Assembly: GCA_964353865.1 (NCBI GenBank)
Contig: CAYGXJ010000078.1
Location: 1,853-65,852 of the forward strand
Reading direction: 5' to 3'
DNA from: an uncultured Anaerolineales bacterium
Lineage (GTDB): Bacteria > Chloroflexota > Anaerolineae > Anaerolineales > RBG-16-64-43
Length of the DNA stretch: 64,000 nt
Translations under genes and position numbers: made by a program
The notes under the pieces: generated by a model
Told to the model about the DNA's origin: nothing
What the model saw: only the letters and a program-made list of their open reading frames with translations
Databases searched by the model: none
Part shown: positions 4,401-63,004 of the stretch, piece after piece
Position numbering within the stretch: position 1 is the stretch's first letter
How the letters are laid out: the number at the start of each line of letters is the position of its first letter

Positions 4401-4937
4401 GTGAGCGTTGCCTTGCCCGAATTGATCCAGGCCATCCTGCGCGATTACGCGCTGCCGGTTTTCGGACACCACGGGGTGGCACATTGGGCGCGCGTGCTGG
4501 AGAACGGACTGGCGCTCGCGCCGCGCACCGGCGCCAACGAAGAGGTGGTGCGCCTGTTCGCGGTGTTGCACGACTCGCGGCGCGTGAACGAGGCGGTGGA
4601 TCACCTGCACGGCCGCCGCGGCGCGGATTTTGCCGCCTCGCTGCGTGGCGCTGGGTTCGACCTGCCGGATGCGGACTTCGAATTGCTCTACCAGGCCTGC
4701 GCACTGCACACCGACGGTCTCACCACCGCCGATGTCACCGTGCAAACGTGCTGGGACGCCGACCGGCTCGACCTGGCGCGTGTCTTCATTAGGCCGCGGC
4801 CCGAGTTTCTATGCACGGACATGGCGCGCAACCCGCAGCTCATGAGGTGGGCGGTGCTGCGTGGCGCGCAGCGCGTCGTGCCAGCCCTGGTCGCCGAAGT
4901 CTGGCACATCCCGCTGCCCACGCCCGGCACAGGCTGA
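4401..4937 (+). CDS. HD-domain-like hypothetical protein
   Basis: H..H / LHD / D pattern (HHGVAHWARV, AVLHDSRR, CWDADRLD). GTG 4401 lies just after the upstream stop. Function unknown. Confidence 0.6.
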   Translation: MSVALPELIQAILRDYALPVFGHHGVAHWARVLENGLALAPRTGANEEVVRLFAVLHDSRRVNEAVDHLHGRRGADFAASLRGAGFDLPDADFELLYQACALHTDGLTTADVTVQTCWDADRLDLARVFIRPRPEFLCTDMARNPQLMRWAVLRGAQRVVPALVAEVWHIPLPTPGTG

Positions 4938-5052
4938 TCGCGCCGTTCCCTGCTCGGCATTCCCATGGCCTCCCATCTGGTGGTAGAGTCACGCCGGGTT
5001 CCGCGCGCGGCGGGTTCGTCCGGGCCTGCCCGCGCGTGAGCAGGGAGGCGGC

Positions 5053-6357: not shown

Positions 6358-6434
6358 GGCGGGCGGTGCGCAAGTCCCCCTGAGACCGACCGCAGTTGGT
6401 GAGGCGGCGTGCGCTCTAGACTGTAGCCGCGGGT

Positions 6435-7829: not shown

Positions 7830-8193
7830 CAGGCGGCTCCTTGGGAAGGGATGGTCCCCACGCAAGGCTTAACACGCGCGGAGCACTGGAAGAGACGAGT
7901 TTGGCCTGAGCCTAGTCCTCGAGGCTATTGGGCCCCGGGGAAGTAGGAGGGTCGGGCCATGGCGGCGAGTGAGCATGATCTGGCGATTGGTGGAGCACGT
8001 GCCAAGAGGCACGAGCGCTGACAAGCATGCGCGGGCCACCAGAATGGCGCCCGACCGACAGTCCCGACAGCCCTAGGTGGCGCCAGGCATGCAAACCATT
8101 GTCCAGACTTGCATGGACCTGCAACGCGTGCGCGTGATTGGGGCAATCGAAAGACTCCTCCCATGGATTCATCCAGGAAGGGGAGGAATTTCG

Positions 8194-8225
8194 TATAATA
8201 CAGATGGACATTGACGGCAAATGTC
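8194..8225 (+). promoter_or_regulatory. putative -10 (TATAAT 8194-8199) followed by a 7-bp inverted repeat GGACATT-N7-AATGTCC (8205-8225) upstream of the etf fusion gene
   Basis: Read directly from the AT-richer intergenic DNA. No convincing -35 element. Confidence 0.3.
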
Positions 8226-8251
8226 CCTCGAGAAGACACTGAGGACACACA

Positions 8252-10096
8252 GTGCGCATTGTCGTCTGCGTCAAACAGGTGCCCACGGCCGACCGCCTGC
8301 AGTTCGACAGCCGAGATCTGCGCCTTGTGCGCGCGGGCGTGCCGAACGAAATTAACCCATTCGATCGTCGCGCGCTGGCGCAGGCCATTGCGTTGCGCGA
8401 GCAGCACGGCGGCGAAGTCATCGTGCTCACGATGGGCCCTGAACAGGCGCGCGAGGCGCTTTTCGAAGCCCTGGCTTCCGGCGCCGATCGCGCGGTTCAC
8501 TTGCAGGGAAGAGAGTTCGCCGGATCGGACACTCTGGCCACCGCTCGCGCGTTGGCTGAGGCCTGCCGCCACATCGGGTTCGACCTGATCTTGTGCGGCA
8601 AGTACACCACCGACGGGGAGACGGCCCAGGTGCCGGGGATGATCGCAGAGATACTGGACCTGCCCCAGGTTTCGGGAGTGACGGGCCTTGAGCTCAACGC
8701 CAAGCTCGATCGGGTGACCGTGACAAGCGAAGTGGATGACGGCCTGGAGGTGGTCGAGGCCAGGCTGCCGGCGGTGCTCACCGCCAGCGAGCGGTTGATC
8801 AAACCCATCAAGGTGTCGCCCGAGATGCTGGCCGCCGCGCGCAGCCGGCCGGTGGAGACGTGGGGAGCGCGCCAGCTCGAACTCGACCCGGTGCTGCTGG
8901 GGGATTCGGGCTCACCGACATGGGTCAGCGCGGTGCGCGAAGTCGTCAGCTGCCGCAAGCGAGTGATCCGCTCGGCGCACGAGGGCGCGCAGGGGGTGGT
9001 GGATGCGACGGTGCGCGATCTCCTGGCCGAGGGGCTGTTTGGCCGATGGCGAGCCACGGCCAGTGAGGCGCCGCCGATGGCGCATGCTGCCCGCTCAGCC
9101 GAGCGCGCGGTGTGGGTTGTCGCCGAGGTGCACCATGGCACACTGCGTCCGGTCACATTTGAGATGCTGGCCGAGGCGCGGCGTGTCGCAACCCGCCTGG
9201 GTGGGCCGGTGGCCTGCGTGCTCATCGGGCACGAGGTAGCCCCACTGGCTTCGCTTGCCGCGCGTCACGGTGCCGAGGTTGTCTACGTCGCGGATGCCGA
9301 GCCGCTGGGTGAGTTCTCGCTCGAGCAACATACGCACGTCCTGGCCGCCGCCATTCGCGCGCGCCGACCGCACCTGGTGTTGTTAGCTTCGACCGCAAGC
9401 GGCCGCGACCTCGCCCCGCGCGTTGCGGCGCGGCTGGAGATCGGCCTGACCGGCGATTGCCTGGGTCTGGAGGTCGACGATCAATCGCGGATTGTGCAGC
9501 TTAACCCGGCCTTTGCCGGCAGCCTGATCGCGCCTGTCCTTACTCGAACATTGCCGGTCATGGCTACGCTTCGTCCGGGCGCCGTGGAACCCTGGCCGCC
9601 GGATGGCTCGCACATGGTCGAGATCATCCACCTGGAGGTCGGCCATCTGCCGGCCAAGCGTACGCGTGTGCGCGATCACCAGCCGAGCGAGTACACGGTC
9701 CTCGACCTGGAACGCAGCCAGGTCATTGTCGGGGTGGGGATGGGCATGGGTGGCCCGCAGAATTTCCCGCCGTTGGATGAATTGGCGCGCGTGCTGGGCG
9801 CCGGTCTGGGCGCCACCCGCAAGGTGGTGGACGAAGGCTGGCTGCCTCGCCAGACCCAGATCGGGTTGACCGGTCATGCCTATGGGCCCAAGCTTTACGT
9901 TGCAGTAGGCATCAGCGGCAAGCCATACCATCTGTTCGGGTTGCGGCGCGCCGGGTTGATCCTCGCGGTGAACTCCGACCCGCAGGCGCCGATCTTCGCG
10001 GATTGCGACTACGGGATCGTTGGTGATTGGAGCGAGGTGGTCCCTCTTCTCACAGCGCGCCTGGTGCGTGCCCGGCGTGAAGCGGGCGTGACATGA
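8252..10096 (+). CDS. fused electron-transfer flavoprotein, EtfB-like N-half and EtfA-like C-half in one 614-aa polypeptide
   Basis: N-half: MRIVVCVKQVP..., NPFD, CGKYTTDGETAQVPGMIAE. C-half: VGVGMG..., ATRKVVDEGW, YVAVGISGKPYH, AVNSDPQAPIF. No stop or frameshift between the halves. GTG start. Confidence 0.85.
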   Translation: MRIVVCVKQVPTADRLQFDSRDLRLVRAGVPNEINPFDRRALAQAIALREQHGGEVIVLTMGPEQAREALFEALASGADRAVHLQGREFAGSDTLATARALAEACRHIGFDLILCGKYTTDGETAQVPGMIAEILDLPQVSGVTGLELNAKLDRVTVTSEVDDGLEVVEARLPAVLTASERLIKPIKVSPEMLAAARSRPVETWGARQLELDPVLLGDSGSPTWVSAVREVVSCRKRVIRSAHEGAQGVVDATVRDLLAEGLFGRWRATASEAPPMAHAARSAERAVWVVAEVHHGTLRPVTFEMLAEARRVATRLGGPVACVLIGHEVAPLASLAARHGAEVVYVADAEPLGEFSLEQHTHVLAAAIRARRPHLVLLASTASGRDLAPRVAARLEIGLTGDCLGLEVDDQSRIVQLNPAFAGSLIAPVLTRTLPVMATLRPGAVEPWPPDGSHMVEIIHLEVGHLPAKRTRVRDHQPSEYTVLDLERSQVIVGVGMGMGGPQNFPPLDELARVLGAGLGATRKVVDEGWLPRQTQIGLTGHAYGPKLYVAVGISGKPYHLFGLRRAGLILAVNSDPQAPIFADCDYGIVGDWSEVVPLLTARLVRARREAGVT

Positions 10097-49611: not shown

Positions 49612-49689
49612 GGGGGCGTGGTGTAGCTGGCCTAACACGCGGCCCTGTCAAGGCCGAGACCGCGGGTTCGAATCCCGTCGCTCCCGCCA
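49612..49689 (+). tRNA. tRNA-Asp (anticodon GTC), CCA encoded
   Basis: Hand-folded. Acceptor GGGGGCG/CGCTCCC (one G-U pair), D stem GTGT/ACAC, anticodon stem CGGCC/GGCCG with loop CTGTCAA, T arm GCGGG-TTCGAAT-CCCGT, then G-CCA. Confidence 0.9.
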
Positions 49690-50202: not shown

Positions 50203-50231
50203 TTGACACCCCAGTCCACCCATGCTATCCT
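50203..50231 (+). promoter_or_regulatory. sigma-70-type promoter TTGACA-N17-TATCCT of the gntR / methyl-transfer operon
   Basis: -35 at 50203-50208 and -10 at 50226-50231. Confidence 0.6.
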
Positions 50232-50282: not shown

Positions 50283-51071
50283 ATGACGTCTTCCAAGGCC
50301 GAACACGCCTCGCTCAATCCTCTCCAGCTCAAACCTGTCAACCGTCTGGTGGCCGGCGTGCCTCTCTACATTCAGATAGCAGAAGGACTCCTGACCTGGG
50401 TCGATTCGGGTCGCCTCGCTCCTGGCGATCGCCTGCCGCCCGAGCGCGACCTGAGCCAGATGCTTGGCGTGAACCGAATGACTTTGCGCCGTGCGCTGGA
50501 GATGCTCGAGGCGCAGGGGCTGCTGGCGCGCCGCCAAGGTGCCGGCACCTACATCGCCGACCGCAAGATCGAGCGCCAGGCCGGGCAACTAGTCTCGTTC
50601 ACCAAGCGCATGCGCGAGCAAGGCTTCACGCCTGGGGCGAAGGTGATCTCGTTTGAGGAGCGGCCGTGCGGCGCAGCTCTGGCGGCGGCGCTGCGGCTGC
50701 CGGCATTTGCGCCCGTCTACGACATCCGCCGGCTGCGATTCCTCAACGGCCAGCCGGTGCTGCTCGAGCACTATACGCTCCCGATCATGCGCTTTGCGCG
50801 CCTGGCGCGATACGATCTTGAGCAAAACTCGTTGTACGAGGTGCTGCATGAGCACTACGGGGTGGATGTGCATCGGGCGCGCCTCAGCCTGGAGGCGGTG
50901 CTGGCCACCGCGTACGAGTCTGAGCAATTGCTCGTGCCGCTGAGCGCACCGCTGATGCTTGAACGCCGGCTTTCATATGATGCTCTGGGAGCGCCGGTGG
51001 ACCACGGCGAGGACTACTACCGGGGGGACCGTTTTCAATTCGTCACCGAGACGGCGGCGCTGGCGCTGTAG
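50283..51071 (+). CDS. GntR/HutC-family transcriptional regulator (wHTH plus UTRA domain)
   Basis: PLYIQIAEGL...GDRLPPERDLSQMLGVNRMTLRRALEMLEAQGLLARRQGAGTYI followed by a UTRA-like C-terminus. ATG 50283. Confidence 0.88.
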   Translation: MTSSKAEHASLNPLQLKPVNRLVAGVPLYIQIAEGLLTWVDSGRLAPGDRLPPERDLSQMLGVNRMTLRRALEMLEAQGLLARRQGAGTYIADRKIERQAGQLVSFTKRMREQGFTPGAKVISFEERPCGAALAAALRLPAFAPVYDIRRLRFLNGQPVLLEHYTLPIMRFARLARYDLEQNSLYEVLHEHYGVDVHRARLSLEAVLATAYESEQLLVPLSAPLMLERRLSYDALGAPVDHGEDYYRGDRFQFVTETAALAL

Positions 51072-51122: not shown

Positions 51123-52643
51123 ATGGGCCAATACTTCGAACTGCTGAGCCGCGATCAGGTGCTGCGGGTTCACGAGGCATCACTGGAGATTCTCGACGAG
51201 GTGGGGCTGCTCATCCGCAATGCGCAAGCGCGTGAGATCCTCGCTGCACATGGCTGCCGCCCGCTGCCCGGGAGCGAGATCATGCACTTCCCGCGAGCCG
51301 TGGTTGAAGAGTTCCGCGTCTCGATCCCGCCCACCTTCACTTTTGGCGGCCGCGAGCCGCGCTTCGACCGGACGATCCCGGACGACAGCCCGGTGATGGT
51401 CACCGGCAGTTCGGCGCCGAACATCATCGACCCGCTGACCGGGCAGGAGCGACGCGCGCGCTCGGAAGACTTGGCACGCATCGCCCATCTCGTCAACGGA
51501 CTCCCGGGGTACGACGTCTTCTCCATCTCAACTCTGGCCGAAGACGCCCCTGCGGGCATGTTCAGCCTCACCCGCTTCTATGCCGCACTTAAGAACTGCG
51601 CCAAGCCGGTGCGCGGCAGCGGCCCGCCTGAGGACACCGAGAAGATTCTGCAACTGGCGTATACCATCGCCGGAAGCGAAGCCGCCTACCGGGCACATCC
51701 TTTCGTGACCCATCACTACTGCCCGGTGGTTTCGCCGCTGACGATGGATTTCGATTCGACCCAGATGCTCATCTATTACACCGAGCAAGGGCTGCCCTGC
51801 TACCCGACCATTGTCCCCAACGCCGGGCTCACATCGCCGCTGACTCTCCTGGGGACTTTAGCCCAGGGCAATGCGGAATTCCTGGCCGCGGCGGTTCTCG
51901 AGCAAATGGTGCGGCCCGGCAAAGCTACGATCTACGCCATGTTACCTACCGTGGCCGATATGCGCAGCGGGGCCTACGCGCCGGGCGCGATCGAGACCGG
52001 CGTGCTCTTCGTGGGGCACGCGCAGATGGCACGTTTCTACAATGTGCCCAACGGCGGCTACATTGGGCTGACCAATTCCAAACTCAACGACGCCCAATCG
52101 GGCTACGAGACCGGTATGTCGCTGGCGCTTGGCCTGGCGGCCGGCGTGGACATGTTCAACACCGGCGGGTTGCTGGACGCGTTGATGGCATTCGATTTTG
52201 CCAAGGCGGCCATTGACGACGAAATCTTCATGATGGCCAAGCGGGCCAAGCGCGGACTGGAGTTCAGCGAGGACAACCTGGCCCTCGATCTGATTCGCGA
52301 GGTGGGACCGGCGGGCATGTTTATGGACAACGCGCACACGTTGGAGCGCATGAAGACGGCCGCCTTCCTGCCCGAGATTTCGGATCGCGACGCTCGCGCC
52401 CAGTGGATCGAGCGCGGCGCCCTGGACTCACAGGAGCGCGCGATGCGCAAGGTGCAAGACATTCTGACCTGCGACAACCCGGTTGTGTTTTCCGCGGAGG
52501 TCGATGCACGCGTGCGCGCCAAATTCGCCGGTCTGGTGGCTGGGGACTCGCGCCCGCCCGAAGGCTGGACACGCGCCGCCCGGACCGCCCGGCGTGAGCG
52601 CACTGAACGGCGGCGACGCGAAGCGGCTGGCCAGAGCAGCTGA
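51123..52643 (+). CDS. MttB-superfamily (non-pyrrolysine) methyltransferase, probable quaternary-amine:corrinoid methyltransferase
   Basis: 506 aa with no in-frame TAG. MttB-like along the full length (LSRDQVLRVHEASLEILDEVG..., IDDEIFMMAKR..., TLERMK). Substrate unknown. Confidence 0.8.
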   Translation: MGQYFELLSRDQVLRVHEASLEILDEVGLLIRNAQAREILAAHGCRPLPGSEIMHFPRAVVEEFRVSIPPTFTFGGREPRFDRTIPDDSPVMVTGSSAPNIIDPLTGQERRARSEDLARIAHLVNGLPGYDVFSISTLAEDAPAGMFSLTRFYAALKNCAKPVRGSGPPEDTEKILQLAYTIAGSEAAYRAHPFVTHHYCPVVSPLTMDFDSTQMLIYYTEQGLPCYPTIVPNAGLTSPLTLLGTLAQGNAEFLAAAVLEQMVRPGKATIYAMLPTVADMRSGAYAPGAIETGVLFVGHAQMARFYNVPNGGYIGLTNSKLNDAQSGYETGMSLALGLAAGVDMFNTGGLLDALMAFDFAKAAIDDEIFMMAKRAKRGLEFSEDNLALDLIREVGPAGMFMDNAHTLERMKTAAFLPEISDRDARAQWIERGALDSQERAMRKVQDILTCDNPVVFSAEVDARVRAKFAGLVAGDSRPPEGWTRAARTARRERTERRRREAAGQSS

Positions 52644-52690
52644 CGTGTGCCGCGAGGCCGGGAGTGGGAGAGGGGCAGGCCCGGCCCTCA

Positions 52691-54766
52691 ATGCATACCC
52701 ATCGATATGGGACGGATGACACTGTGACCGACAAGCCAACCTCAATCCCCGAACACCAACTCGTGCTCGTGCCATCCGGGCGGCGCGGACTCATCGCAGA
52801 GGGGACCGACCTGCTCACCGCCTGCCGCTCACTGGGGGTGGATCTGGAATCGATTTGCGGCGGCAAGCAGACCTGCGGCAAATGCCAGGTCGTCGTGGAG
52901 GAAGGGCGCTACGAGAAACACGGCCTCACCTCCGTCGCACGTCACCTCTCGCCGCCCGAGGCGCAAGAGATCGCCTGCGCGGCCAAATTCGATATCCACG
53001 GCCGACGGCTGGCCTGCGCCGCCCGCGTGCAGGGCGAATTGCTGGTCAGCGTGCCGGAGGAAAGCCAGGCGCGCAAACAGGTCATCGCCAAAGAGGCCAC
53101 TGAGCGCACGATAACCATCCAGCCCGCGGTGCGGCTCATCTATATAGAAGTGACCCCGGCCAACCTGGGTGACCATCGCGGGGATTGGCAACGGGTGCAG
53201 CAGGCGCTGCGTGAACAATGGCAGATCGCGTCGCCGGTCCTCGACCCGGCCGTGCTGCCCAGCCTGCAACCGGCGCTGCGCCGTGGCGGGAGCACGCTGA
53301 CCCTCACCCTGTGGGACGAGCGCGAGGTGCTGCGCATCGAGCCCGGCTATGTGGAGCGGCTGGTCGGCCTGGCGGTGGATGTGGGTTCAACCACTATCGC
53401 GGCTCACCTGTGCGACTTGCGCACCGGCGCCGTGCTCGCCAGCGAATCGATGATGAATCCCCAGGTGCGCTTCGGCGAAGACCTGATGAGCCGAGTGTCG
53501 TACGGCATGAGCGAGCCGCAAGGCGTGGCACGCATGCACCGTGCGGTCATCCGCGCCATCAACGAATTGGCCGAGAAGGCCGCTGCCCGCGGCGGGTTTA
53601 CCTCGGGCGAGATCGTCGACAGCGTGCTGGTGGGCAACAGCATCATGCATCACCTGCTGCTCGGGCTTGACCCGGTTGAGCTGGGCGGTGCGCCGTTTGC
53701 GCTGGCCACCTCCGGACCGCTCGACATGAAGGCGCGCGACCTGGGGCTGGCGTTCCACCGCGGCGCGCGGGTGCACGTGCTGCCGTGTATCGCCGGGCAT
53801 GTGGGCGCCGACCACGTGGCGGCGCTGCTGGCCGAGGCGCCGCACAAGCAAGATGAAGCGATGCTGCTCATCGATGTGGGGACCAACGCCGAGATCTCGC
53901 TCGGCAACCGCGAGCGAATGATGTGCGCCTCAAGCCCGACCGGGCCGGCCTTCGAGGGCGCGCAAATCACCCACGGCCAGCGCGCCGCTCCGGGCGCCAT
54001 CGAGCGGGTGCGCATCGACCGCGTCACGCTCGAGCCGCACTTGAAGGTCATCGGCCATGAGACCTGGGTGGAGCCGCAGGCTGCGGACGAAGTGCCTGCC
54101 CAGGCACGTGCCACCGGCATCTGCGGCAGCGGCATCATCGAGGCCGTAGCGGAGATGTTCCTGGCCGGCATCATCACCTCCGACGGCCGCTTCGACGAAC
54201 AGGCCGCCGAGCGCTCACCGCGCGTGCAATTCGAAGGACGCACCGGGCGCTACGTGCTCGCGGACGCCGCGCAAACCGCTACCGGCGCGCCGATCGTGGT
54301 CACTCAGAGCGATGTGCGCGCGATTCAATTAGCCAAGGCGGCGTTGTATGCCGGCGTGCGGCTGCTCATGGAACATCAGGGCGTCGCGCAGGTCGACCGC
54401 ATTGCACTGGCCGGCGCCTTCGGCAGTTACATCAGCCCGCGCCACGCGATGATCCTGGGCATGATCCCAGACTGCGAGCTGGAGCGCGTGCAGGCCGTAG
54501 GTAATTCGGCGGGCGACGGAGCGCGCATTGCCCTGCTCGACCGCGAGCAGCGAGTGGAGGCGGAGCGGCTGGCGAGATGGGTGGAGCACGTGCAGACAGC
54601 CACCGAGCCCACCTTTCAAGATCTGTTCGTCGCGGCGCTTGCCTTGCCGCACGCGAGCGACGCCTTCCCTCATTTGCAGGCCGAGCTTCCTGCCCCGCGA
54701 ACCGCCGCACGGGCGCGGCCGCGGCAAAGCCACACCAACCCATCCCACCTGGAGAATGCGGAATGA
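52691..54766 (+). CDS. corrinoid reductive-activation ATPase (RACo / RamA-like; N-terminal [2Fe-2S] ferredoxin plus ASKHA ATPase)
   Basis: CGGKQTCGKCQV...LACAARV plant-type 2Fe-2S motif. ASKHA region GLAVDVGSTTIAAHL, LLIDVGTNAEI. Start ATG 52691 (52664/52724 are alternatives). Confidence 0.82.
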   Translation: MHTHRYGTDDTVTDKPTSIPEHQLVLVPSGRRGLIAEGTDLLTACRSLGVDLESICGGKQTCGKCQVVVEEGRYEKHGLTSVARHLSPPEAQEIACAAKFDIHGRRLACAARVQGELLVSVPEESQARKQVIAKEATERTITIQPAVRLIYIEVTPANLGDHRGDWQRVQQALREQWQIASPVLDPAVLPSLQPALRRGGSTLTLTLWDEREVLRIEPGYVERLVGLAVDVGSTTIAAHLCDLRTGAVLASESMMNPQVRFGEDLMSRVSYGMSEPQGVARMHRAVIRAINELAEKAAARGGFTSGEIVDSVLVGNSIMHHLLLGLDPVELGGAPFALATSGPLDMKARDLGLAFHRGARVHVLPCIAGHVGADHVAALLAEAPHKQDEAMLLIDVGTNAEISLGNRERMMCASSPTGPAFEGAQITHGQRAAPGAIERVRIDRVTLEPHLKVIGHETWVEPQAADEVPAQARATGICGSGIIEAVAEMFLAGIITSDGRFDEQAAERSPRVQFEGRTGRYVLADAAQTATGAPIVVTQSDVRAIQLAKAALYAGVRLLMEHQGVAQVDRIALAGAFGSYISPRHAMILGMIPDCELERVQAVGNSAGDGARIALLDREQRVEAERLARWVEHVQTATEPTFQDLFVAALALPHASDAFPHLQAELPAPRTAARARPRQSHTNPSHLENAE

Positions 54767-55446
54767 GCGAGGAATTGGATCTGACCAAGCTGCCGACCGA
54801 GGAGATCGTCCTGCAGATCAAGGACGACCTGTATGATGGACTGGCGGCTGAAGTTGCGGCCGCGGTCCGGGAACTGCTGCGTCGCGGCCTGACGCCCTAC
54901 GAGGTTCTAACCGGATCGCTCGTGGCCGGGATGGATGTCGTGGGTGCGGATTTCCGCGACGGGGTCCTCTTCGTGCCCGAGGTGCTCATGGCCGCCAAGT
55001 CCATGAAGGCCGGCATGGAAATCCTGCGCCCGCTGCTGGTGGAGACCGGCGCGCCGCAGATCGGCACGTTCGTCATCGGGACGGTGAAAGGCGACATTCA
55101 CGACATCGGCAAGAACCTGGTGGCGATGATGATGGAGGGGGCCGGGTTCAAGGTGGTGAACCTGGGCATCAACGTGGACGCGGAGAAGTTCATCGGCGCG
55201 GTGAAGGAGCACAAGCCCACTCTCTTCGGCATGAGCGCGCTGCTGACCACGACCATGCCGTACATGGGGGTGGTGATCAAGGCTCTCAAGGAAGCCGGGT
55301 TGCGCGACGACCTGATTGTCTTGGTCGGCGGCGCACCGCTTAACGCCACTTTTGCCGAAGAGATCGAGGCCGACGCCTACTGTCGCGATGCGGCCATCGC
55401 GGTCGAAACGGCCAAGAAACTGGTCGCGCTCAAGCGCGGGGGCTAG
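54763..55446 (+). CDS. corrinoid (B12-binding) protein, cap plus Rossmann domain
   Basis: DxHxxG base-off/His-on motif GDIHDIGKN, MSALLTTT, VGGAP. ATGA overlap with the activase stop. Confidence 0.9.
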   Translation: MSEELDLTKLPTEEIVLQIKDDLYDGLAAEVAAAVRELLRRGLTPYEVLTGSLVAGMDVVGADFRDGVLFVPEVLMAAKSMKAGMEILRPLLVETGAPQIGTFVIGTVKGDIHDIGKNLVAMMMEGAGFKVVNLGINVDAEKFIGAVKEHKPTLFGMSALLTTTMPYMGVVIKALKEAGLRDDLIVLVGGAPLNATFAEEIEADAYCRDAAIAVETAKKLVALKRGG

Positions 55447-55587: not shown

Positions 55588-56475
55588 ATGACAACCTGGA
55601 GTGAGTTGCTGGCGCAGCCAGGAGTGATCCTCGCCGATGGCGCGATGGGCACGATGCTGATGGCAAACGGACTGGCATTCGGCAATTCCCCTGAACTATG
55701 GAACGTCGATGAGCCGCAGCGCGTGGGAGAGGTTCACGCGGCTTACCTCCAAGCGGGCGCGCGCATCCTCCTGACCAACACATTCGGCGGGAACCGCTTC
55801 CGCTTGCAGCTCCACAACTTGCAGGAGCGTGCCGCCGAACTGAACCGCGCTGCGGCACGCCTGGCTCGCGAAGCCGCGGGGGGCACCGCGCTGGTGGCGG
55901 GCGACATCGGCCCCAGCGGGGGCATCCTGGCGCCCCTCGGCGAACTGGAGCCCGAGGCAGCCGTGGCCGGGTTCGCCGAGCAGGCGGCGGCGCTGGTCGA
56001 GGGCGGGGTCGACGTGATCTGGCTCGAGACGATGTCGAGCCTGGAAGAGATGCGCGCGGCTATCGACGGAGTGCGGCGGGCGTCGGCGGGTATCCCGATC
56101 ATCACCACGATGACGTTCGATACGCGCGGGCGGACGATGATGGGTGTGACGCCCGCGCGCGCGGCGCAGACTCTGAGCGGATGGGGGGCCGTGGCGGTGG
56201 GGGGCAACTGCGGCAACGGGCCGGACGAAATCCTCGAAGTGGTGGCCAAGATGCGGGCGACGGCGCCCGCCGCCACGCTCGTGGCCAAAGCCAACGCCGG
56301 CGTGCCGCACCTTGCGGCCGGGCGTCCGGTTTACGGCGCCGGCCCGGACGACATGGCGCGCTACGCCATCGCGGCCGTCGAGGCCGGGGCGCGCGTCATC
56401 GGCGCGTGCTGCGGAAGCACACCAGACCATTTGCGAGCGATGCGCGATGCGCTCGCAGCCAAAGGCCTGCTCTAG
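55588..56475 (+). CDS. stand-alone homocysteine S-methyltransferase-domain protein (MetH Hcy-module-like)
   Basis: ILADGAMGTML, LLTNTFGGN, Zn-ligand Cys in GGNCG and GACCGSTP. AGGAGG RBS. Confidence 0.85.
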   Translation: MTTWSELLAQPGVILADGAMGTMLMANGLAFGNSPELWNVDEPQRVGEVHAAYLQAGARILLTNTFGGNRFRLQLHNLQERAAELNRAAARLAREAAGGTALVAGDIGPSGGILAPLGELEPEAAVAGFAEQAAALVEGGVDVIWLETMSSLEEMRAAIDGVRRASAGIPIITTMTFDTRGRTMMGVTPARAAQTLSGWGAVAVGGNCGNGPDEILEVVAKMRATAPAATLVAKANAGVPHLAAGRPVYGAGPDDMARYAIAAVEAGARVIGACCGSTPDHLRAMRDALAAKGLL

Positions 56476-56480
56476 CGGGA

Positions 56481-57071
56481 GTGGTTGAGTTGCGAACTGC
56501 CTTGATCGCCTGTGGTGCATTGGCGCGCGAAGTGCTGGCTCTCAAAGCCAAACACAACTGGCAGGCGGAGGTGCTGGCCGTGCCGTCTTTGTTGCACAAC
56601 ACACCCGACCGCATCCCGCAGGCCGTGGCGCGGCGCATCCGCGAAGCGCGTGCCGCCTTCGACCGGGTCATCGTCGTTTACGGCGATTGCGGCACGGGCG
56701 GCCGGCTGGATGCGCTGCTCGCCGCCGAAGGCGTTGAACGTGTGGCGGGGCCTCATTGTTACGAGATGTACGCCAATGGTCAGTTCCAGGCGATGATGGA
56801 CCGCGCGCCGGGCACGTTTTTCCTCACCGACTATTTGGCGCGTTCATTCGATCATCTGGTCGTGGAGCGATTGGGTCTCGATCGCCACCCGGAACTGCGC
56901 GAGGACTTCTTCGCCAACTACACCAAGGTGGTCTATCTGGCGCAGGAGGACAAAGCGGAGCTGGTGGCCAAGGCGGAATGGGCTGCGCGCGCCCTTGGGC
57001 TGCCGCTGGAGGTGGTGCGTGTGGGCTACGGTGCACTCGAATCACGGCTGGTGGAGATGATGAAAGCATGA
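56481..57071 (+). CDS. DUF1638-family protein
   Basis: LIACGALAREV...SLLHNTPDRIP...VIVVYGDCGTGG...GPHCYEMY matches my recollection of the DUF1638 pattern. GTG 56481 or TTG 56490. Confidence 0.7.
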   Translation: MVELRTALIACGALAREVLALKAKHNWQAEVLAVPSLLHNTPDRIPQAVARRIREARAAFDRVIVVYGDCGTGGRLDALLAAEGVERVAGPHCYEMYANGQFQAMMDRAPGTFFLTDYLARSFDHLVVERLGLDRHPELREDFFANYTKVVYLAQEDKAELVAKAEWAARALGLPLEVVRVGYGALESRLVEMMKA

Positions 57072-57373
57072 GCGTTGACGTTCGTATCGTTTCGTGGCGC
57101 GATATCCCGGCGCAGGTGAAGATCGGCGCCGGACGTGCGCGCATATCGCGTCCACTCGCCGAGCGCTTTCAGCGCGCGATCGACGAGGCGGCGATGCGCG
57201 CCGGAAAAAGCGGCAGCGACGAATACCTCACCGAGTGGCGCACCTCCGACCCCGAGACCCGCGAAGGGGAACCCGAATCGGTGGCCGCGGAACTCGTGGC
57301 GGAGATCGAGGCCGCGTACCCCGAGGCGCGGCTGCAGGCCTTGGTGGCTCAGCGCGGGTTAGAGGCCGCATAG
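57068..57373 (+). CDS. small conserved protein with WRDIPAQV motif (I recall this as the Pfam 'Virulence factor' family that accompanies MetF/DUF1638 clusters)
   Basis: 101 aa. ATGA overlap with the DUF1638 gene stop. The family assignment is from memory only. Confidence 0.55.
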   Translation: MSVDVRIVSWRDIPAQVKIGAGRARISRPLAERFQRAIDEAAMRAGKSGSDEYLTEWRTSDPETREGEPESVAAELVAEIEAAYPEARLQALVAQRGLEAA

Positions 57374-57411: not shown

Positions 57412-57867
57412 ATGTCGTTCCTGCAAAACCATCCGGCGCTGCTCGAGACGGCCTACGACGCAACCACGCGCCTGCTGCATCCGTGGCGGCGCTGGCTGCG
57501 CCGCGGCGGGGCGACCGAGAAGCTTCTGGTCGTCGCCGAGCAGGTGGGCAAAGGCGCCATCTTCGACTGCCGCATGTGCGGCGAATGTGTGCTGCACAAC
57601 ACCGGCATGACCTGCCCGATGACCTGCCCTAAGAATATGCGCAACGGGCCGTGCGGCGGAGTGCGCCCCGACGGCCGCTGCGAAGTCCTTCCCGACCAGC
57701 CCTGCATTTGGACTGAGGCGTGGCAGCGCGCGGCGCGCATGCCCAAGTACGGCGGCGAAATCCACCTCATCCTGTCTCCGCTCGACCGCCAGCAGCAGGA
57801 CCGCTCGGCTTGGTTGAACGAACTTCTCGGCCTGCCGGATTCGGTCCCCCAGGGATGGGACGAATGA
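57412..57867 (+). CDS. metV: methylene-THF reductase C-terminal-domain protein (MetV-type Cys-rich subunit)
   Basis: CRMCGECVL...TGMTCPMTCPKNMRNGPCGG. Its stop overlaps the metF start (ATGA). Confidence 0.8.
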   Translation: MSFLQNHPALLETAYDATTRLLHPWRRWLRRGGATEKLLVVAEQVGKGAIFDCRMCGECVLHNTGMTCPMTCPKNMRNGPCGGVRPDGRCEVLPDQPCIWTEAWQRAARMPKYGGEIHLILSPLDRQQQDRSAWLNELLGLPDSVPQGWDE

Positions 57868-58823
57868 AGAGCGGCTCCCGGCTCGAGCGCGTGTTGCACT
57901 CCGGGCGATTTGCGGTGACGGCCGAGCTGAACCCGCCCGACAGCGCCGATGCGCAGGCAGTCTACGACCGCGCGTTGGTGCTGGCCTCGGTGTGCGACGC
58001 GATCAATGCCACCGATGCCTCGGGCGCCAATGTCCACATGTCGAGCGTCGGGGTGTGCGCATTGCTCACACGCGCCGGCTACGAGGCTGTGCTGCAGGTA
58101 AGCTGCCGCGACCGCAATCGCATCGCCATACAGGGCGATCTGCTGGGGGCGGCCGCCATGGGCGTGCGCAACGTGCTGTTCCTCACCGGCGACGGAGTCC
58201 AGGCTGGCGATCAGCCGCAGGCCAAGCCGGTGTTCGATCTGGATTCGATCGCTGCGCTGCGCATGGCACGCCTGATGCGCGACACGGGGCGCTTCCTTAG
58301 CGGGCGGACCCTCGAGGTGCCGCCGCGCATCTTCATGGGGGCGGCTGCCAACCCGTTTGTGCCACCGGTGAAGTTTCGCGCCCAGCACTTGGCCAAGAAA
58401 GTGGAAGCCGGGGCCGATTTCATCCAAACCCAGTACGTCTTTGACCTGGCGCGCATGCGCCAGTTCATGCGTGAAGTGTGCGATTTAGGGCTCGACCGCC
58501 GCGTCCACATTCTGGCTGGCGTGGGCCCGCTGCGCTCGGCCAAGACCGCGGAGTGGATGCGCAGCCACGTGCCGGGAGTGGTGGTGCCGGATGACGCGGT
58601 ACATCGCCTGCGCGGCGTGCCGACCGACCACCAACGCGAAGAGGGCAAACGCCTGTGCATCGAGATTATCCGTGAACTGCGCGAGATGCCTGGCATTCAT
58701 GGAGTGCATGTGATGGCCTATCGCCAGGAGGAGCTGGTGGCGGAAATCATCGAAGAAGCCGGCCTGCTCCCGCGACGGGCGGAGCCCGAAGCGACGGCGC
58801 GAGTTGAGGAGAAAGTGGCCTGA
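57864..58823 (+). CDS. metF: 5,10-methylenetetrahydrofolate reductase
   Basis: FAVTAELNPP, LQVSCRDRNR, FLTGD, KVEAGADFIQTQ. Confidence 0.88.
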   Translation: MKSGSRLERVLHSGRFAVTAELNPPDSADAQAVYDRALVLASVCDAINATDASGANVHMSSVGVCALLTRAGYEAVLQVSCRDRNRIAIQGDLLGAAAMGVRNVLFLTGDGVQAGDQPQAKPVFDLDSIAALRMARLMRDTGRFLSGRTLEVPPRIFMGAAANPFVPPVKFRAQHLAKKVEAGADFIQTQYVFDLARMRQFMREVCDLGLDRRVHILAGVGPLRSAKTAEWMRSHVPGVVVPDDAVHRLRGVPTDHQREEGKRLCIEIIRELREMPGIHGVHVMAYRQEELVAEIIEEAGLLPRRAEPEATARVEEKVA

Positions 58824-59727
58824 TGGAAACCATTCTTCGTTCGCCGGGGCGCGAAGTGCGCATTGGCCCGGCGCGGCCCTTCGTCATCATCGGTGAACGG
58901 ATCAACCCGACCAACCGCGCGCGGCTGGCGGCGGAAATGGCGGCCGGCGATTTCTCACGGGCGCGCGCGGAGGCGATTGCCCAGGTGCAAGCCGGGGCGC
59001 AGGTGCTGGATGTCAACGCGGGCATTCCGCTGGCCGACGAACCGGCCATCCTAGCCGAGGCTATCCGCGTCATCCAGGAGGCCGTCGATGTGCCGCTGCG
59101 CATCGATTCCTAGCTTGTCAAAGCGCTGGAAGCCGGTTTGGCCGCCTATCGCGGCAAACAGCTGGTCAATTCGGTGACCGGCGAGAGCGAGCGCCTGGAA
59201 GTGGTGCTGCCGCTGGTGAAGAAAAACGGCGCGGCGGTGATCGGCGTGGCCAACGACGAGGGCGGTATCTCGGAAGACATACACGTGCGTTTCGCGGTGG
59301 CACAGAAGATCGTCGAGCGCGCGGAAGCGTTCGGCATCCCGCGTGAAGACGTGCTCATCGACCCGTGGCCATGCCCATCGGCGCGGTTGCCGCCGCCGGC
59401 GTCTCGCTGTTTGCCTTGGCGCGCCGGCTGCGCGAGGAACTCGGGGTCAACACCGTGTGCGGGGCACCCAATATCTCGTTCGGCCTGCCGGATCGCGTAA
59501 TGCTGAACGGCGCCTTTCTCACCATGGCCATCGGCGCGGGCATGACCTGTGCCATCACTAATCCGCTGGAGGAGGACTTGCGCAAGTTGATCCTTGCGGC
59601 GGATGTGATGATGGCCCACGATGATAACTGCGCGTCGTGGCTCGCGGCGCAGCGACCGGCCGGCGACGGCGCGCGCGAGGAGCGTCTGGCAAGGCGCGAA
59701 CGGCGCCGGGCGCAGCAGGGCGTGTAG
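58823..59727 (+). pseudogene. pterin-binding methyl-THF:corrinoid methyltransferase (MetH pterin-module / MtgA/AcsE-like) disrupted by an in-frame TAG (59111-59113) and a 1-nt deletion near 59363
   Basis: GERINPT..., LDVNAG, PLRIDS-TAG-LVKALEAGL...QLVNSVTGE..., VLIDP then a frame change to (L)AMPIGAV...CGAPNISFGLPDR. The start overlaps the metF stop (TGATG). Confidence 0.65.
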
Positions 59728-59908: not shown

Positions 59909-62900
59909 ATGTCCGTCGAGTACCTGCTCGGCCCCGCCGCCTCAGGCAAGACCCACGCCTGCATTGAGCGTGTGCAATCGCTTCTGGCCAAGAAGAGGCT
60001 CGCCTCGGCCTGGGTGGTTGTGCCCACGCGAACCAGCGCCACCTCCTTCCGCCGCCGGCTGGCACAATCCGGGGGCGCACTCGGCGCTACCATCCTCAGA
60101 TTCAGCGGCCTGTACGACGAGATCCTCGCCCGCGCCGGCCAGTTCATCCCGGTCGCCGATGAGGCCGTCGTTCTGCGCATGGTGCGCGCAGCGATCGATG
60201 CGCTGCACGCCGACGGCATCCTTCCCTACTACGCCCCCATCCGGCGCTCGCCGGGGTTAATTCGCGCCATGGCCGAGCACATCGCCGAATTCAAGCGGGC
60301 GATGCTGACCTCCGAGCAGCTTCAGGCGGCGCTCGTGGACGCCGCGCCGCGACTGACGGAGATGGCAGACATCTACCGCGTCTACCAGGAGGGGCTGCAG
60401 GCGCTGAGCTGGGTGGATCGCGAGGGAGCCGGCTGGCTGGCAGTGCGCGCGCTCCAGCGGCAGGCTGGCCTCCTGCGATCGGTTGACCTTCTGATCGTGG
60501 ACGGGTTCGATTCCTTCAGCCCGCTGCAACTCGAAGCGCTCACCGCGCTCGGCGAGCAGGTGGGCCTGATGGTCATCACGCTGTGCGGTGAGCCGGAGAT
60601 GAGTCGCGCCGCCTACCGGCGGTTCGAGCGCACACACCGCACCCTGACCGAACGCCTGAATCTCTCGCCGGTGATGCTCACTCCGGGCGGCCAACGGCCG
60701 ATGGCGCTTGGGCATCTTGAGCGTTACCTCTTTTCGGCGGAGGCGCCGCAAGTCGATGGCGGGACGGAGGTCGCGCTTCTCGAGGCGCAAACCCAGGCGC
60801 TGGAGGCGCGCGAGGCGCTGCGCTGGATCAAGGCACGCCTCCAGCGCGATGAGCTTAAGCCCTTCGAATGCGCGATCATCGCGCCCGACCTGCGCCCATA
60901 TCAGGCTTACCTGCGCGAGGCGGCGCGCGAGTTCGACCTGCCGGTGCGCTTCGTGCAGGGTGATGTGCTCGAGAACAACCCGGCGATCGCCTCGATCCTG
61001 GACCTTCTTCAACTTCCGCTGCTCGAATGGCCGCGACGGTTGCTGCTGAACGTCGTCTCCAGCCCGTACTTCGATCTGGGCAGTTGCCAATTGGCGCGCG
61101 ACGACGCCTGGCCGCTCGAGGAAGCCGCGCGCGCGGCTCAGGTCATCCGCGGTCTCGACCAGTGGCGGGAGGGCCTGGCAGTTCTCGCGGATGCCGCGCC
61201 GCCACCAGCCACGGATGAGGAAGACACGCCACTGCGCGCCCCATCCGGCGAGCAGGTGCGCCGCCTGGCAGCGGCGCTCGAACGGCTGGCCGAGCGCCTT
61301 CGCCCCGCGCCGGAGGCGACACTCGCCGAGCATTCACGCTGGGCGCTCGAGCGGCTCGACGATGCCGAAGGATTTGCCGTCGAGCGCCAGGTGCGCGCCG
61401 TGCCCGAGAATTCGGAGCGGGACCTGGCGGCGCTGGAGGCGCTGCGGCAGGTGCTGGACGCGCTCGTGCTCAGCGAGAAGGCGCAGCCCAACCCGCCGCG
61501 CGTCGCATATCGCGAATTCATCGACGAGTTGCGCGAGGCGGTGGGTGCCGCCACCTACCAGCCCGAGGGCGATGAGGCCTGGCGCGGTTCGCGCATATGC
61601 GTGGCGGACCTGACCCAGGCGCGCGGCGTGCCCTTCGCAGCCGTGGCCCTGCTCGGCGTGGCAGAAGGCATCTTCCCCAGGCGGCTGAGCGAGGACCCGT
61701 TCCTCACCGACAGCGACCGCGGGCAGTTGATCGAGCGCGGTCTGCGACTCGAGCCGCGCCTGCGCAGCGATCAGCAGACCGTCTTCTACGAGGCCGTCAC
61801 GCGCGCCGAGCGCTTCTTGCTTCTCACGCGGCCATACCTTTCGCCGGAAGGCGAGGCCTGGGAGCCCTCGCCCTACTGGCAAGCGCTGCGCGAAGTGGTG
61901 CGCGTCGTGCCGCAGCGCGTGCGCAGCGAAGGCTGCCTTCCGCTCTCCGAGGCGGCCTCGCGCTCCGAACTCCTGGCGCAGGCTCTACTGCGCGGCGACC
62001 TGCCCGCAGAGTACGCGGAACTCGGCGGCGAGTGGCGTCAGGCACAACATGCCCGCCGCATATTGCAGGCGCGCCTGGCGCGCGAGGCGGAGGGCGAGTT
62101 CGATGGGCAGCCGGCGGACCTCGCGCCGGTGCTGCGCCTAGCCTACGGCCCGCGGCACGTCTTCAGCCCTGGCCGGCTTGAGACCTACGCCGGCTGCAAA
62201 TTCCACTTCTTCATCCAGAAGGCGCTCGCGCTCGAAGAACTGGCCGAACCCGAAGTAGGATTCGATCCGGCGCAGTTAGGGACGATGCTGCACGAGATCC
62301 TCGAGCAGGTTTATGCGAGCGCTGGGGACGTCTCCAACCTTGAGCTGCTCCTCGAGTCGCTTGAGCCGGCGGCCGAACGAGTTTTCGCCGACGCGCCGCG
62401 GCGGCTTGGTTTTCGCCGCTCCCCATTATGGGAAGCCGAACGGGCCGGCCTGCTCGACGACCTGCGCCAGACGCTGCACGCGTTGCATGCCTACTCGACC
62501 GGATATCGCCCGGCGCGGCTCGAGGCGCGGTTCGGGATGGAGGGCGACCCGCTGCGGCTGGAGACCGCGGCGGGCGAAGTTCTGTTGCACGGGATCATCG
62601 ACCGTGTGGACGTGGATGCGCTGGGCCAGCTGCGAGTGATCGACTACAAGACCGGGTCGAGCCGGCTCGAGATGCGGGATCTTGAAGAGGGGCGCCGGCT
62701 GCAGATCACGGTTTACGGGCTTGCGGCCGAAGGCGTGCTGGGGCTGGGCCGGCTGGCCGAGGGCGTGTATTGGAAGATACGCCAGGCCGGAGCCAGCGCG
62801 CTCAAGTTGGAGGCACTCAACTATGTTTCGGAGGCGGGCAAGCACTACGCCGGCGTGAACGGCGCGGCGGACCTGGTCCGCCATTACATCGGGAATTACG

Positions 62901-63004
62901 TTGCCGGCATTCGCGCGGGCGACTTCCGCCCGCGGCCGCCGGAGGGCGGATGCCCGGCGTACTGCCCGGCGCGCCTGTTCTGCTGGCGCTATCAGCCCGC
63001 GTGA
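59909..63004 (+). CDS. addB: AddB-type helicase-nuclease subunit (PD-(D/E)XK nuclease with Fe-S cluster cysteines)
   Basis: N-terminal P-loop GPAASGKT. C-terminal nuclease GIIDRVD...VIDYKTG. Cys cluster YAGC...CPAYCPARLFC. Confidence 0.82.
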   Translation: MSVEYLLGPAASGKTHACIERVQSLLAKKRLASAWVVVPTRTSATSFRRRLAQSGGALGATILRFSGLYDEILARAGQFIPVADEAVVLRMVRAAIDALHADGILPYYAPIRRSPGLIRAMAEHIAEFKRAMLTSEQLQAALVDAAPRLTEMADIYRVYQEGLQALSWVDREGAGWLAVRALQRQAGLLRSVDLLIVDGFDSFSPLQLEALTALGEQVGLMVITLCGEPEMSRAAYRRFERTHRTLTERLNLSPVMLTPGGQRPMALGHLERYLFSAEAPQVDGGTEVALLEAQTQALEAREALRWIKARLQRDELKPFECAIIAPDLRPYQAYLREAAREFDLPVRFVQGDVLENNPAIASILDLLQLPLLEWPRRLLLNVVSSPYFDLGSCQLARDDAWPLEEAARAAQVIRGLDQWREGLAVLADAAPPPATDEEDTPLRAPSGEQVRRLAAALERLAERLRPAPEATLAEHSRWALERLDDAEGFAVERQVRAVPENSERDLAALEALRQVLDALVLSEKAQPNPPRVAYREFIDELREAVGAATYQPEGDEAWRGSRICVADLTQARGVPFAAVALLGVAEGIFPRRLSEDPFLTDSDRGQLIERGLRLEPRLRSDQQTVFYEAVTRAERFLLLTRPYLSPEGEAWEPSPYWQALREVVRVVPQRVRSEGCLPLSEAASRSELLAQALLRGDLPAEYAELGGEWRQAQHARRILQARLAREAEGEFDGQPADLAPVLRLAYGPRHVFSPGRLETYAGCKFHFFIQKALALEELAEPEVGFDPAQLGTMLHEILEQVYASAGDVSNLELLLESLEPAAERVFADAPRRLGFRRSPLWEAERAGLLDDLRQTLHALHAYSTGYRPARLEARFGMEGDPLRLETAAGEVLLHGIIDRVDVDALGQLRVIDYKTGSSRLEMRDLEEGRRLQITVYGLAAEGVLGLGRLAEGVYWKIRQAGASALKLEALNYVSEAGKHYAGVNGAADLVRHYIGNYVAGIRAGDFRPRPPEGGCPAYCPARLFCWRYQPA

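Follow-up and report, generated by a model that had tools for sequence, protein, structure and literature searches.

The closest described counterparts of the locus considered here are the split methionine synthases of Phaeobacter inhibens and Ruegeria pomeroyi. P. inhibens makes methionine with a MetH divided into three proteins, and cofitness ties its DUF1638 gene, PGA1_c13340, to the three genes of the split MetH and to a RamA-like gene (DUF4445, now RACo); mutants of PGA1_c13340 and of the RamA-like gene share a phenotype that methionine rescues, and the two genes have a common phylogenetic profile in Alphaproteobacteria (Price et al. 2018, PMC5764234). The authors offer no specific proposal for the mechanism of DUF1638 (PMC5764234). 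In R. pomeroyi, MtgC and MtgD also serve glycine-betaine demethylation with the MttB-family protein MtgB, and N-osmolytes induce RamA and DUF1638 (SPO2162), with MetF2 showing the strongest induction of any protein (Mausz et al. 2025, PMC12478193). Here we analyzed a related operon in a 64,000-nt stretch of DNA (the window) from an uncultured Anaerolineales bacterium (contig CAYGXJ010000078.1), with a focus on two adjoining genes, one encoding a DUF1638 protein and the other a 101-aa protein of the Pfam family PF13769. Our data favor, though not by much, the view that both proteins serve the upkeep or assembly of the corrinoid machinery and stand outside the methyl chemistry itself.

Several better-known systems provide points of comparison. 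In acetogens and methanogens, RACo, RamA and the activating enzymes of the O-demethylases use ATP to activate corrinoid proteins reductively, and to our knowledge the characterized RACo/RamA activators work without a dedicated partner protein. In the MetVF enzymes of acetogens, MetF is joined by the Cys-rich MetV and sometimes by further electron-input subunits; we know of no PF13769-like subunit described for them. CblC and CblD are B12 trafficking chaperones for human methionine synthase. MetH itself is reactivated by flavodoxin and flavodoxin reductase in E. coli and by methionine synthase reductase in humans, which answers the same need, namely rescue of the Co(II) that arises when Co(I) is oxidized.

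The window operon is an Anaerolineales version of the MtgBCDE/split-MetH system, with a RACo/RamA-type activase. It holds the same Pfam set as the P. inhibens and R. pomeroyi systems, including DUF1638, Fer2-RACo and a MetF paralogue (PMC5764234, PMC12478193): a non-pyrrolysine MttB-family enzyme, a stand-alone corrinoid protein, a stand-alone MtgE and the activase are all present, whereas the mtgD gene is there but broken. It differs from them in having all parts in one translationally coupled operon and in pairing MetF with MetV. The link between DUF1638 and split MetH, which the initial annotation of this DNA had mentioned, is real and already published, in the form of the PGA1_c13340 cofitness and methionine rescue (PMC5764234), and the operon is a compact Chloroflexi member of that system. 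PF13769 goes unmentioned in both papers (PMC5764234, PMC12478193) and in other searchable literature, whether sought by accession, IPR numbers, SPO1861 or PGA1 tags. New relative to that literature are the systematic membership of PF13769 in the system, its fusions, its fold without a match in the PDB, and its unnoticed presence in a published proteome.

Both proteins belong to recognized families. The DUF1638 assignment made at the outset holds, with 101.9 bits against PF07796 (cut-off 27) over model positions 3–159 of 161, and about 7,900 homologues at E ≤ 1e-3. The 101-aa protein scores 91.4 bits against PF13769 (cut-off 25) over positions 2–81 of 81; it has 607 homologues at the same E value, and the family comprises 807 clusters at 50% identity. 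Judged by these large numbers, neither is a chance open reading frame (ORF). The smaller protein had been presented simply as an uncharacterized protein named for its WRDIPAQV motif. Uncharacterized it is, but by its match to a named Pfam family it is no orphan. The nearest relatives of both proteins come from metagenome-assembled genomes (MAGs) of Anaerolineales and other Chloroflexi. The three motifs quoted in the initial annotation all lie in the translations: YGDCGTGG from residue 64 and GPHCYEMY from residue 87 of DUF1638, and VSWRDIPAQVK from residue 8 of the 101-aa protein.

The Cys/His pattern claimed for DUF1638 is indeed conserved. Across 86 unique sequences (the window protein and relatives at 37–99% identity, with archaeal and Firmicute members left out), C8, H36, C67, H89 and C90 are conserved at ≥97% and D66 at 90–97%, within the pattern IACG, LHN, GDCGTGG, HCY. 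The window protein has exactly three Cys, each invariant in this sample, and the classical CxxC motif is absent. In the AlphaFold2 model (predicted local distance difference test score, pLDDT, 92.8), which has two alpha/beta lobes, C8, H36, D66, C67, H89 and C90 are predicted to follow directly on strands 1–4 of the first lobe, and invariant T113-D114, Q152 and G179 likewise appear after strands in the second. Cofactor and metal sites in clefts usually have residues at strand ends, as modeled here, a comparison that is judged from topology and not from distances. The Cys3His2 set is probably a metal, Fe-S or corrinoid-ligating site. A Foldseek search of the PDB returned weak matches to two-lobed alpha/beta proteins, namely the PrpR N-domain (E 9e-4, template modeling score, TM, 0.41) and transcarbamoylases. 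We rejected any transfer of function from these folds, since the matches are too weak.

PF13769 has a very different character. Its hallmark is W10-R11-D12-x-P14-A15-Q16, with WRDxPAQ invariant in 159 sequences; in the same alignment W10, R11, D12, P14, A15, Q16, R23, L30, R33, F34, A37, D39, A42, M43, D51, Y53 and W57 are invariant, and no Cys or His is conserved. The window protein itself contains neither. Its N-terminal half is basic (isoelectric point, pI, 10.2). The acidic tail described earlier is real but is better called an acidic half, since it takes in residues 59–101 (pI 4.1). The AlphaFold2 model (pLDDT 94.5) predicts a three-strand meander, a helix, a short helix, a two-strand hairpin and two helices, and Foldseek found no match for it in the PDB (best E 0.63, TM ≤ 0.29). 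One ENA contig (P0241) encodes a 214-aa polypeptide with a tandem duplication of the PF13769 domain, which may hint that the stand-alone protein is a dimer.

To detect hidden relatedness to B12-binding proteins, ferredoxins or MetV, we compared both families with every other family of the operon by hhalign; all probabilities were ≤1.1%. Profile searches of the PDB gave nothing meaningful for either family (best E 1.2 and 0.43), NCBIfam has no model for DUF1638 or PF13769, and neither the Pfam scan nor hhalign found any likeness to methyltransferases or folate enzymes.

To assess how far the two families are linked to corrinoid genes, we assembled two sets of loci, both of which exclude the anaerobic corrinoid systems of acetogens and methanogens. 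The first was centered on PF13769 and drew on one genome per species (at least 547 species with the gene), of which 80 loci were kept. For the second, metagenome contigs were searched with the N-terminus of a PF13769-RACo fusion, again giving 80 loci; 79 of these matches were confined, or almost confined, to the ferredoxin part, and hence were found through the activase. Loci were annotated by phmmer, with the operon proteins and proteobacterial orthologues as queries.

In the activase-centered set, PF13769 is present at all 80 loci and is immediately preceded by DUF1638 at 75; the other five lack a DUF1638 match, and several of those contigs end just upstream. The block MtgC-DUF1638-PF13769-MetV-MetF-MtgD-RACo is seen at 69 of the 80 loci, and DUF1638-PF13769-MtgD-RACo, without MetF, at eight. 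Among genomes, the order MtgC-(homocysteine S-methyltransferase)-DUF1638-PF13769-MetV-MetF-MtgD(-RACo) recurs in Chloroflexi (our loci L012, L024, L063 and L168) and in two Porticoccaceae (L057, L061). In Azoarcus sp. KH32C, the genes run corrinoid protein, DUF1638, 'virulence factor', MTHFR_C, methylenetetrahydrofolate reductase (MTHFR), 'dihydropteroate synthase' and ASKHA protein, and they are flanked by glycine-betaine ABC transporter genes, purU and ETF (electron-transfer flavoprotein) genes; unlike this locus, the window operon contains no betaine transporter gene. Sinorhizobium meliloti has the block in two parts about 2.3 kb apart, the first with an MttB gene, a B12-binding gene and DUF1638, the second with 'virulence factor', MTHFR_C, MTHFR, MtgD, a hypothetical gene and ASKHA, and with bmt nearby. 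A 112-aa ORF between MtgD and the ASKHA activase of S. meliloti (L087, 14970–15308) has no Pfam match.

In about 60 Rhodobacteraceae, PF13769 is followed by a divergent 320-aa MTHFR-like gene (MetF2) and then by MtgD, with RACo often 1–3 kb beyond; DUF1638 lies elsewhere, next to MtgC (L042, L080). Across Chloroflexi and the alpha-, beta- and gamma-proteobacteria, PF13769 accompanies the corrinoid system. The initial annotation had staked its case on the two family assignments and on conserved linkage to corrinoid and MetF genes. The assignments stand, and the linkage spans these four bacterial lineages. Where the two genes occur as a pair, they are close (90 of 92 pairs within ∼40 nt, with gene starts only crudely inferred). 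Nevertheless, they are separable: DUF1638 tracks the corrinoid protein, and PF13769 tracks the MetF/MtgD/activase side. A mirror-tree analysis of 50 complete blocks showed that the seven genes are co-inherited (r = 0.84–0.95), and the partial correlations of PF13769 were 0.32 with MtgC, 0.33 with MetV, 0.16 with RACo and –0.04 with DUF1638.

More divergent contexts were also found. In Candidatus Leptofilum (L005, 5082–10288), PF13769 ends an operon of a URO-D-type methyltransferase, a corrinoid protein, MtgD and RACo, which includes no MttB-family enzyme and has no MetF or DUF1638 nearby; L009 holds an isolated PF13769-RACo pair. Divergent PF13769 proteins (36–40% identity) sit in corrinoid/RACo/MTHFR/pterin clusters without DUF1638 in L172, L173 and L174. 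In two of these, the lineages with the most divergent PF13769, a single MTHFR-MTHFR_C protein of ∼540 aa combines MetF and MetV (L172, 4039–5640; L173, 5331–6962), and L172 also has a 91-aa ORF without a Pfam match between the corrinoid protein and RACo (1961–2236). The L174 operon comprises a corrinoid protein, a pterin-binding methyltransferase, RACo, a 197-aa Fe/Mn superoxide-dismutase-like protein (Sod_Fe_C, 7208–7801), PF13769 and an MTHFR-like gene; the Sod_Fe_C gene may hint at protection of the Co(I) machinery from oxygen or superoxide. Two loci are outliers. In L011, from a Chloroflexota MAG (4621–9525), PF13769 lies upstream of a NuoEF-like flavoprotein, FdhD, a 2Fe-2S/4Fe-4S protein and DUF6847, a set that resembles an NAD-dependent formate-dehydrogenase cluster, and the contig has no corrinoid genes. 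In L175, no related genes surround PF13769.

PF13769 is also found covalently joined to members of the corrinoid machinery. On a finished plasmid of Terrarubrum flagellatum, a single 760-aa protein combines PF13769, Fer2 and the RACo linker, RACo middle and ASKHA domains, and its gene directly follows those for a B12-binding protein and DUF1638. The same fusion occurs on a related metagenome contig (L088). In two further sequences (P0366, P0510), PF13769 is fused to homocysteine S-methyltransferase, which places this fusion on a Logan metagenome contig; in its L171 context, RACo comes before the fused gene and DUF1638 after it. L053 has the unfused order RACo-PF13769-homocysteine S-methyltransferase-DUF1638. 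PF13769 can thus be attached covalently to two distinct parts of the machinery; in the sequences examined, neither MetV nor MetF was ever the fusion partner. Long ORFs in L027 and L081 that resembled additional PF13769 fusions were rejected as stop-free upstream stretches lacking a second domain.

The R. pomeroyi proteome provides expression data. There, an 'uncharacterized protein', SPO1861, adjoins metF2 (SPO1862) and mtgD (SPO1863). Because four Ruegeria species (L071, L077, L078, L084) have the order PF13769-MetF2-MtgD, SPO1861 is, by synteny, very probably the PF13769 orthologue. Although PF13769 does not figure in the text of that study, SPO1861 is present in its proteome table, with 1–7 peptides per replicate on carnitine, choline, betaine and succinate plus betaine and none in the succinate/ammonium control (PMC12478193). 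The increase is significant on carnitine (3.0 log2) and on succinate plus betaine (4.0 log2).

How might the two proteins act? In systems of the MtgBCDE/split-MetH type, the MttB-family enzyme methylates the corrinoid protein MtgC, MtgD moves the methyl group to or from tetrahydrofolate (THF), MtgE hands it to homocysteine, and MetVF interconverts methyl-THF and methylene-THF; the activase, with ATP and its 2Fe-2S domain, restores inactive Co(II) to Co(I). Reactivation here draws on ATP and not on S-adenosylmethionine, and we found no sequence or fold relation to the proteins that reactivate MetH. Both families co-occur with the activase, and PF13769 can be fused to its N-terminus; relative to the characterized RACo/RamA activators, they would be extra components of a proteobacterial/Chloroflexi branch. 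DUF1638 and PF13769 are placed outside this chemistry proper because they have no methyltransferase, folate-binding or B12-binding homology. DUF1638 may act on the corrinoid protein, in reactivation or in loading or repair of the cofactor. That it is a metal-, cluster- or corrinoid-binding helper is suggested by its published mutant phenotype, its association with activase and corrinoid protein, and the Cys3His2 site. PF13769 could be an adaptor on which the activase and the separate modules (MtgD/MetF and MtgE) dock around MtgC; features that fit this are its lack of conserved Cys/His ligands, its bipolar charge, the RACo and MtgE fusions, and its persistence without MetF or DUF1638. The initial annotation had proposed corrinoid handling or reactivation in preference to C1 chemistry, and the linkage, the PF13769-RACo fusion and the lack of likeness to methyltransferases or folate enzymes lend that proposal support.

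Overall, then, we find upkeep or assembly somewhat the more credible role. The family memberships, the conserved linkage, the fusions, the predicted folds and the residue conservation are shown by the data; what we infer is which cofactor DUF1638 carries, which proteins PF13769 binds and at what step each one works, and we hold any particular cofactor or partner with much less confidence than the general reading. Several observations weigh against that reading. The fusions are rare (four sequences, two with RACo and two with homocysteine methyltransferase) and always involve an adjoining gene. MetV/MetF is the commonest immediate neighbor of PF13769 (144 of 160 genome and metagenome loci), which would suit a role in the folate branch just as well, and the mirror-tree test singled out no PF13769 partner, the partial correlations being weak. 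The samples are dominated by a few lineages, and therefore the counts overstate the number of independent events. The PrpR N-domain match of DUF1638 is weak, and the clustering of its Cys and His residues rests on topology. The searchable literature contains no biochemical or genetic datum on PF13769, and the five methionine-synthesis genes of the P. inhibens study do not include a PF13769 orthologue (PMC5764234); PF13769 may be dispensable for methionine synthesis, or the gene may be too small for insertion hits in that organism.

The main alternative is that MetF or MetVF has in PF13769 a small subunit or an assembly factor, one that affects methyl-THF redox, for example by docking an electron carrier, in which case its function would belong to folate/C1 redox chemistry and not to corrinoid upkeep. 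Gene order gives this idea its force. MetV or MetF lies immediately downstream of PF13769 at 73 of 80 genome and 71 of 80 metagenome loci, directly so in most loci outside the roseobacters. PF13769 comes first in the Rhodobacteraceae PF13769-metF2-mtgD unit, often overlapping the metF2 start, and the L173 order is MTHFR-MTHFR_C fusion, MtgD, PF13769. Of the partial distance correlations of PF13769, the one with MetV ranks near the top, and in R. pomeroyi the neighbor of SPO1861 is the strongly induced MetF2. However, PF13769 is retained at loci with no MetF within 10 kb or in the operon (L005, L009, L053, L171 and eight metagenome variants), every fusion seen is with RACo or homocysteine methyltransferase and never with MetV or MetF, and the magnitude of SPO1861 induction is unlike that of MetF2. 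Moreover, in contrast to the subunits of acetogen MetVF, PF13769 has no conserved Cys or His with which to ligate a redox metal, and it occurs also without MetV or MetF. We regard a role in MetF or MetVF as possible but unlikely.

A second alternative concerns DUF1638, which might be a corrinoid chaperone or processing enzyme that holds cobalamin in the cleft between its lobes, with Cys/His on the cobalt, and that delivers it to apo-MtgC or strips a wrong upper ligand, with no transfer of electrons. B12 trafficking uses Co-S(Cys) ligation. The DUF1638 gene directly follows that for the corrinoid protein in alpha-, beta- and gamma-proteobacteria and at 68 metagenome loci. Its conserved residues are predicted at strand ends in both lobes (C8, H36-N37, D66-C67-G-T-G-G, H89-C90, T113-D114, Q152, G179), and the folds nearest to it, those of the PrpR N-domain and the transcarbamoylases, belong to two-lobed proteins that bind ligands or work as cleft enzymes. 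A protein with Cys and His residues that passes cobalamin on to methionine synthase would resemble CblC/CblD by analogy of role only, as we detected no homology. Against a chaperone stand the lack of detectable similarity to any B12-binding family and the several PF13769/RACo/corrinoid operons that have no DUF1638 nearby. This proposal, too, we hold only tentatively, as a minority possibility.

A more specific idea is that DUF1638 and PF13769 together form an unrecognized electron-input or assembly module for RACo-type activases in oxygen-exposed bacteria, which we consider improbable. Here DUF1638 would carry a labile metal or Fe-S center, PF13769 would dock it, and possibly MetVF/MetF too, onto the N-terminal 2Fe-2S domain of the activase, and the electrons for Co(II)-to-Co(I) repair would come from methyl-THF oxidation or another cellular donor. 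If such a module exists, it would add a third way of reactivating cobalamin to the two used by MetH (flavodoxin plus S-adenosylmethionine) and by anaerobes (ferredoxin-fed RACo/RamA).

That one or both proteins regulate the operon, for instance as a small nucleic-acid-binding or B12-sensing protein, is very unlikely. In favor are the small size of PF13769, its basic N-terminal half with numerous invariant Arg and aromatic residues, and its first place in its unit in Rhodobacteraceae, and DUF1638 finds its top fold match in a regulator's sensor domain, that of PrpR. However, no Pfam domain for DNA or RNA binding is present in either protein, the operon comes with a GntR regulator already, and fusions to an ATPase-activase and a methyltransferase would be unexpected for a regulator. 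In addition, the DUF1638 mutant has the same phenotype as mutants in enzyme subunits, and there is no riboswitch or other RNA element nearby. A role for PF13769 in virulence can be dismissed almost entirely, as its sole support is the family name 'Virulence_fact' and the RefSeq product names, while the bacteria that carry it live freely in soil and sea (Anaerolineales, roseobacters, Porticoccaceae, Azoarcus), nearly all its contexts apart from L011 and L175 are corrinoid/folate methyl-transfer operons, and no paper in the searchable literature backs the name.

The genes of the window cluster are listed below.

Table 1. Genes of the corrinoid methyl-transfer cluster in the window, with positions counted from its first nucleotide
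Gene product	Position	Strand	Family match
GntR/UTRA-family regulator, first gene of the cluster	50283..51071	+	PF00392 + PF07702
MttB-superfamily substrate:corrinoid methyltransferase (MtgB-like)	51123..52643	+	PF06253, E 1.6e-88
RACo/RamA-type ATP-dependent reductive activase of corrinoid proteins	52664..54766	+	PF00111, PF17650, PF17651, PF14574
Corrinoid protein, MtgC-like (B12 cap + B12-binding domain)	54763..55446	+	PF02607 + PF02310
Homocysteine S-methyltransferase module (MtgE-like)	55588..56475	+	PF02574, E 3.4e-68
DUF1638 protein, 193 aa	56490..57071 (alternative GTG start 56481)	+	PF07796, E 4.4e-29
PF13769 ('Virulence_fact') protein, 101 aa	57068..57373	+	PF13769, E 4.5e-26
MetV (MTHFR C-terminal, Cys-rich small subunit)	57412..57867	+	PF12225, E 7.6e-26
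MetF, methylenetetrahydrofolate reductase	57864..58823	+	PF02219, E 4.5e-36
Methyl-THF:corrinoid methyltransferase, pterin-binding, MtgD-like, disrupted	58823..59727	+	PF00809 / PRK07535 on first 96 aa

The GntR regulator holds the same position in the relatives L012, L024, L063 and L168, and a promoter-like site (50203–50231) lies ahead of its gene. The MttB-family ORF (506 aa) is uninterrupted by an in-frame stop and is hence of the non-pyrrolysine type. The protein falls under the TIGR02369 trimethylamine equivalog cut-off (329 versus 525). The activase has the architecture of the RACo/RamA/O-demethylase activators, namely a 2Fe-2S ferredoxin (Fer2) domain followed by RACo linker, middle and ASKHA domains; its start is uncertain, the L168 orthologue being 680 aa. 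In the corrinoid protein, GDIHDIG provides the DxHxxG motif, and the top NCBIfam match is the glycine-betaine corrinoid protein MtgC, under that model's cut-off. The homocysteine S-methyltransferase has the Zn-ligand motifs GGNCG and GACCG. It scores 339.9 against NCBIfam PRK07534, 'betaine--homocysteine S-methyltransferase' (BHMT), barely over the cut-off of 338, and annotation pipelines will therefore call this gene BHMT; Mausz et al. 2025 (PMC12478193) argue that BHMT-named proteins of this type are the MtgE module of split methionine synthase and not true BHMT.

The overlap of DUF1638 and PF13769 reported initially, both on the + strand, is plain in the sequence: ATG at 57068–57070 overlaps TGA at 57069–57071, giving ATGA at 57068–57071. 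The DUF1638 gene had been taken to begin at 56481; the gene is there, but since database orthologues are 193 aa, its start is probably TTG 56490, which has GGGAG 8 nt upstream. Further ATGA overlaps occur at the RACo/MtgC (54763–54766) and MetV/MetF (57864–57867) junctions, and a TGATG at MetF/MtgD (58821–58825). With four such junctions, overlap is a property of the whole operon and not specific to the DUF1638/PF13769 pair, and translational coupling extends through the entire operon. MetF starts at ATG 57864, in the overlap with the MetV stop, or at ATG 57855 (the L168 orthologue is 319 aa). An Rfam scan of 44–64 kb found no cobalamin riboswitch or other RNA element, its single match being a tRNA; the tRNA gene at 49612–49686 bounds the cluster upstream. 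Downstream of the operon (59909–63004) lies a gene for a 1031-aa AddB-like helicase-nuclease, whose L168 orthologue shows UvrD-helicase/ADDB_N/PDDEXK domains, followed by an AddA-like gene.

Only mtgD is damaged; the remaining operon genes are all intact in the window. Relative to the intact L168 gene (GCA_035288225.1, 97% identical), mtgD contains an in-frame TAG at 59111–59113 in place of the TCG of L168, amid a cluster of several substitutions, and it has lost 1 nt between 59365 and 59366. The gene may be a pseudogene, or the damage may be an assembly error. Reading of the TAG as pyrrolysine was rejected, given the Ser codon in L168 and the frameshift in the same gene.

Recent work identified MtgBCDE/split MetH as a major route by which abundant marine bacteria demethylate glycine betaine and make methionine. 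DUF1638, which is genetically required, and PF13769 bear on the question of how the cobalamin of this enzyme stays active in oxic cells. PF13769 appears to be a further conserved component, overlooked in part through its misleading name. Candidates are available in tractable hosts, namely SPO1861 and SPO2162 in R. pomeroyi and their counterparts in S. meliloti. Clarifying the role of PF13769 would correct thousands of 'virulence factor' annotations, and clarifying the roles of both proteins would complete the parts list for reconstitution of the system in vitro.

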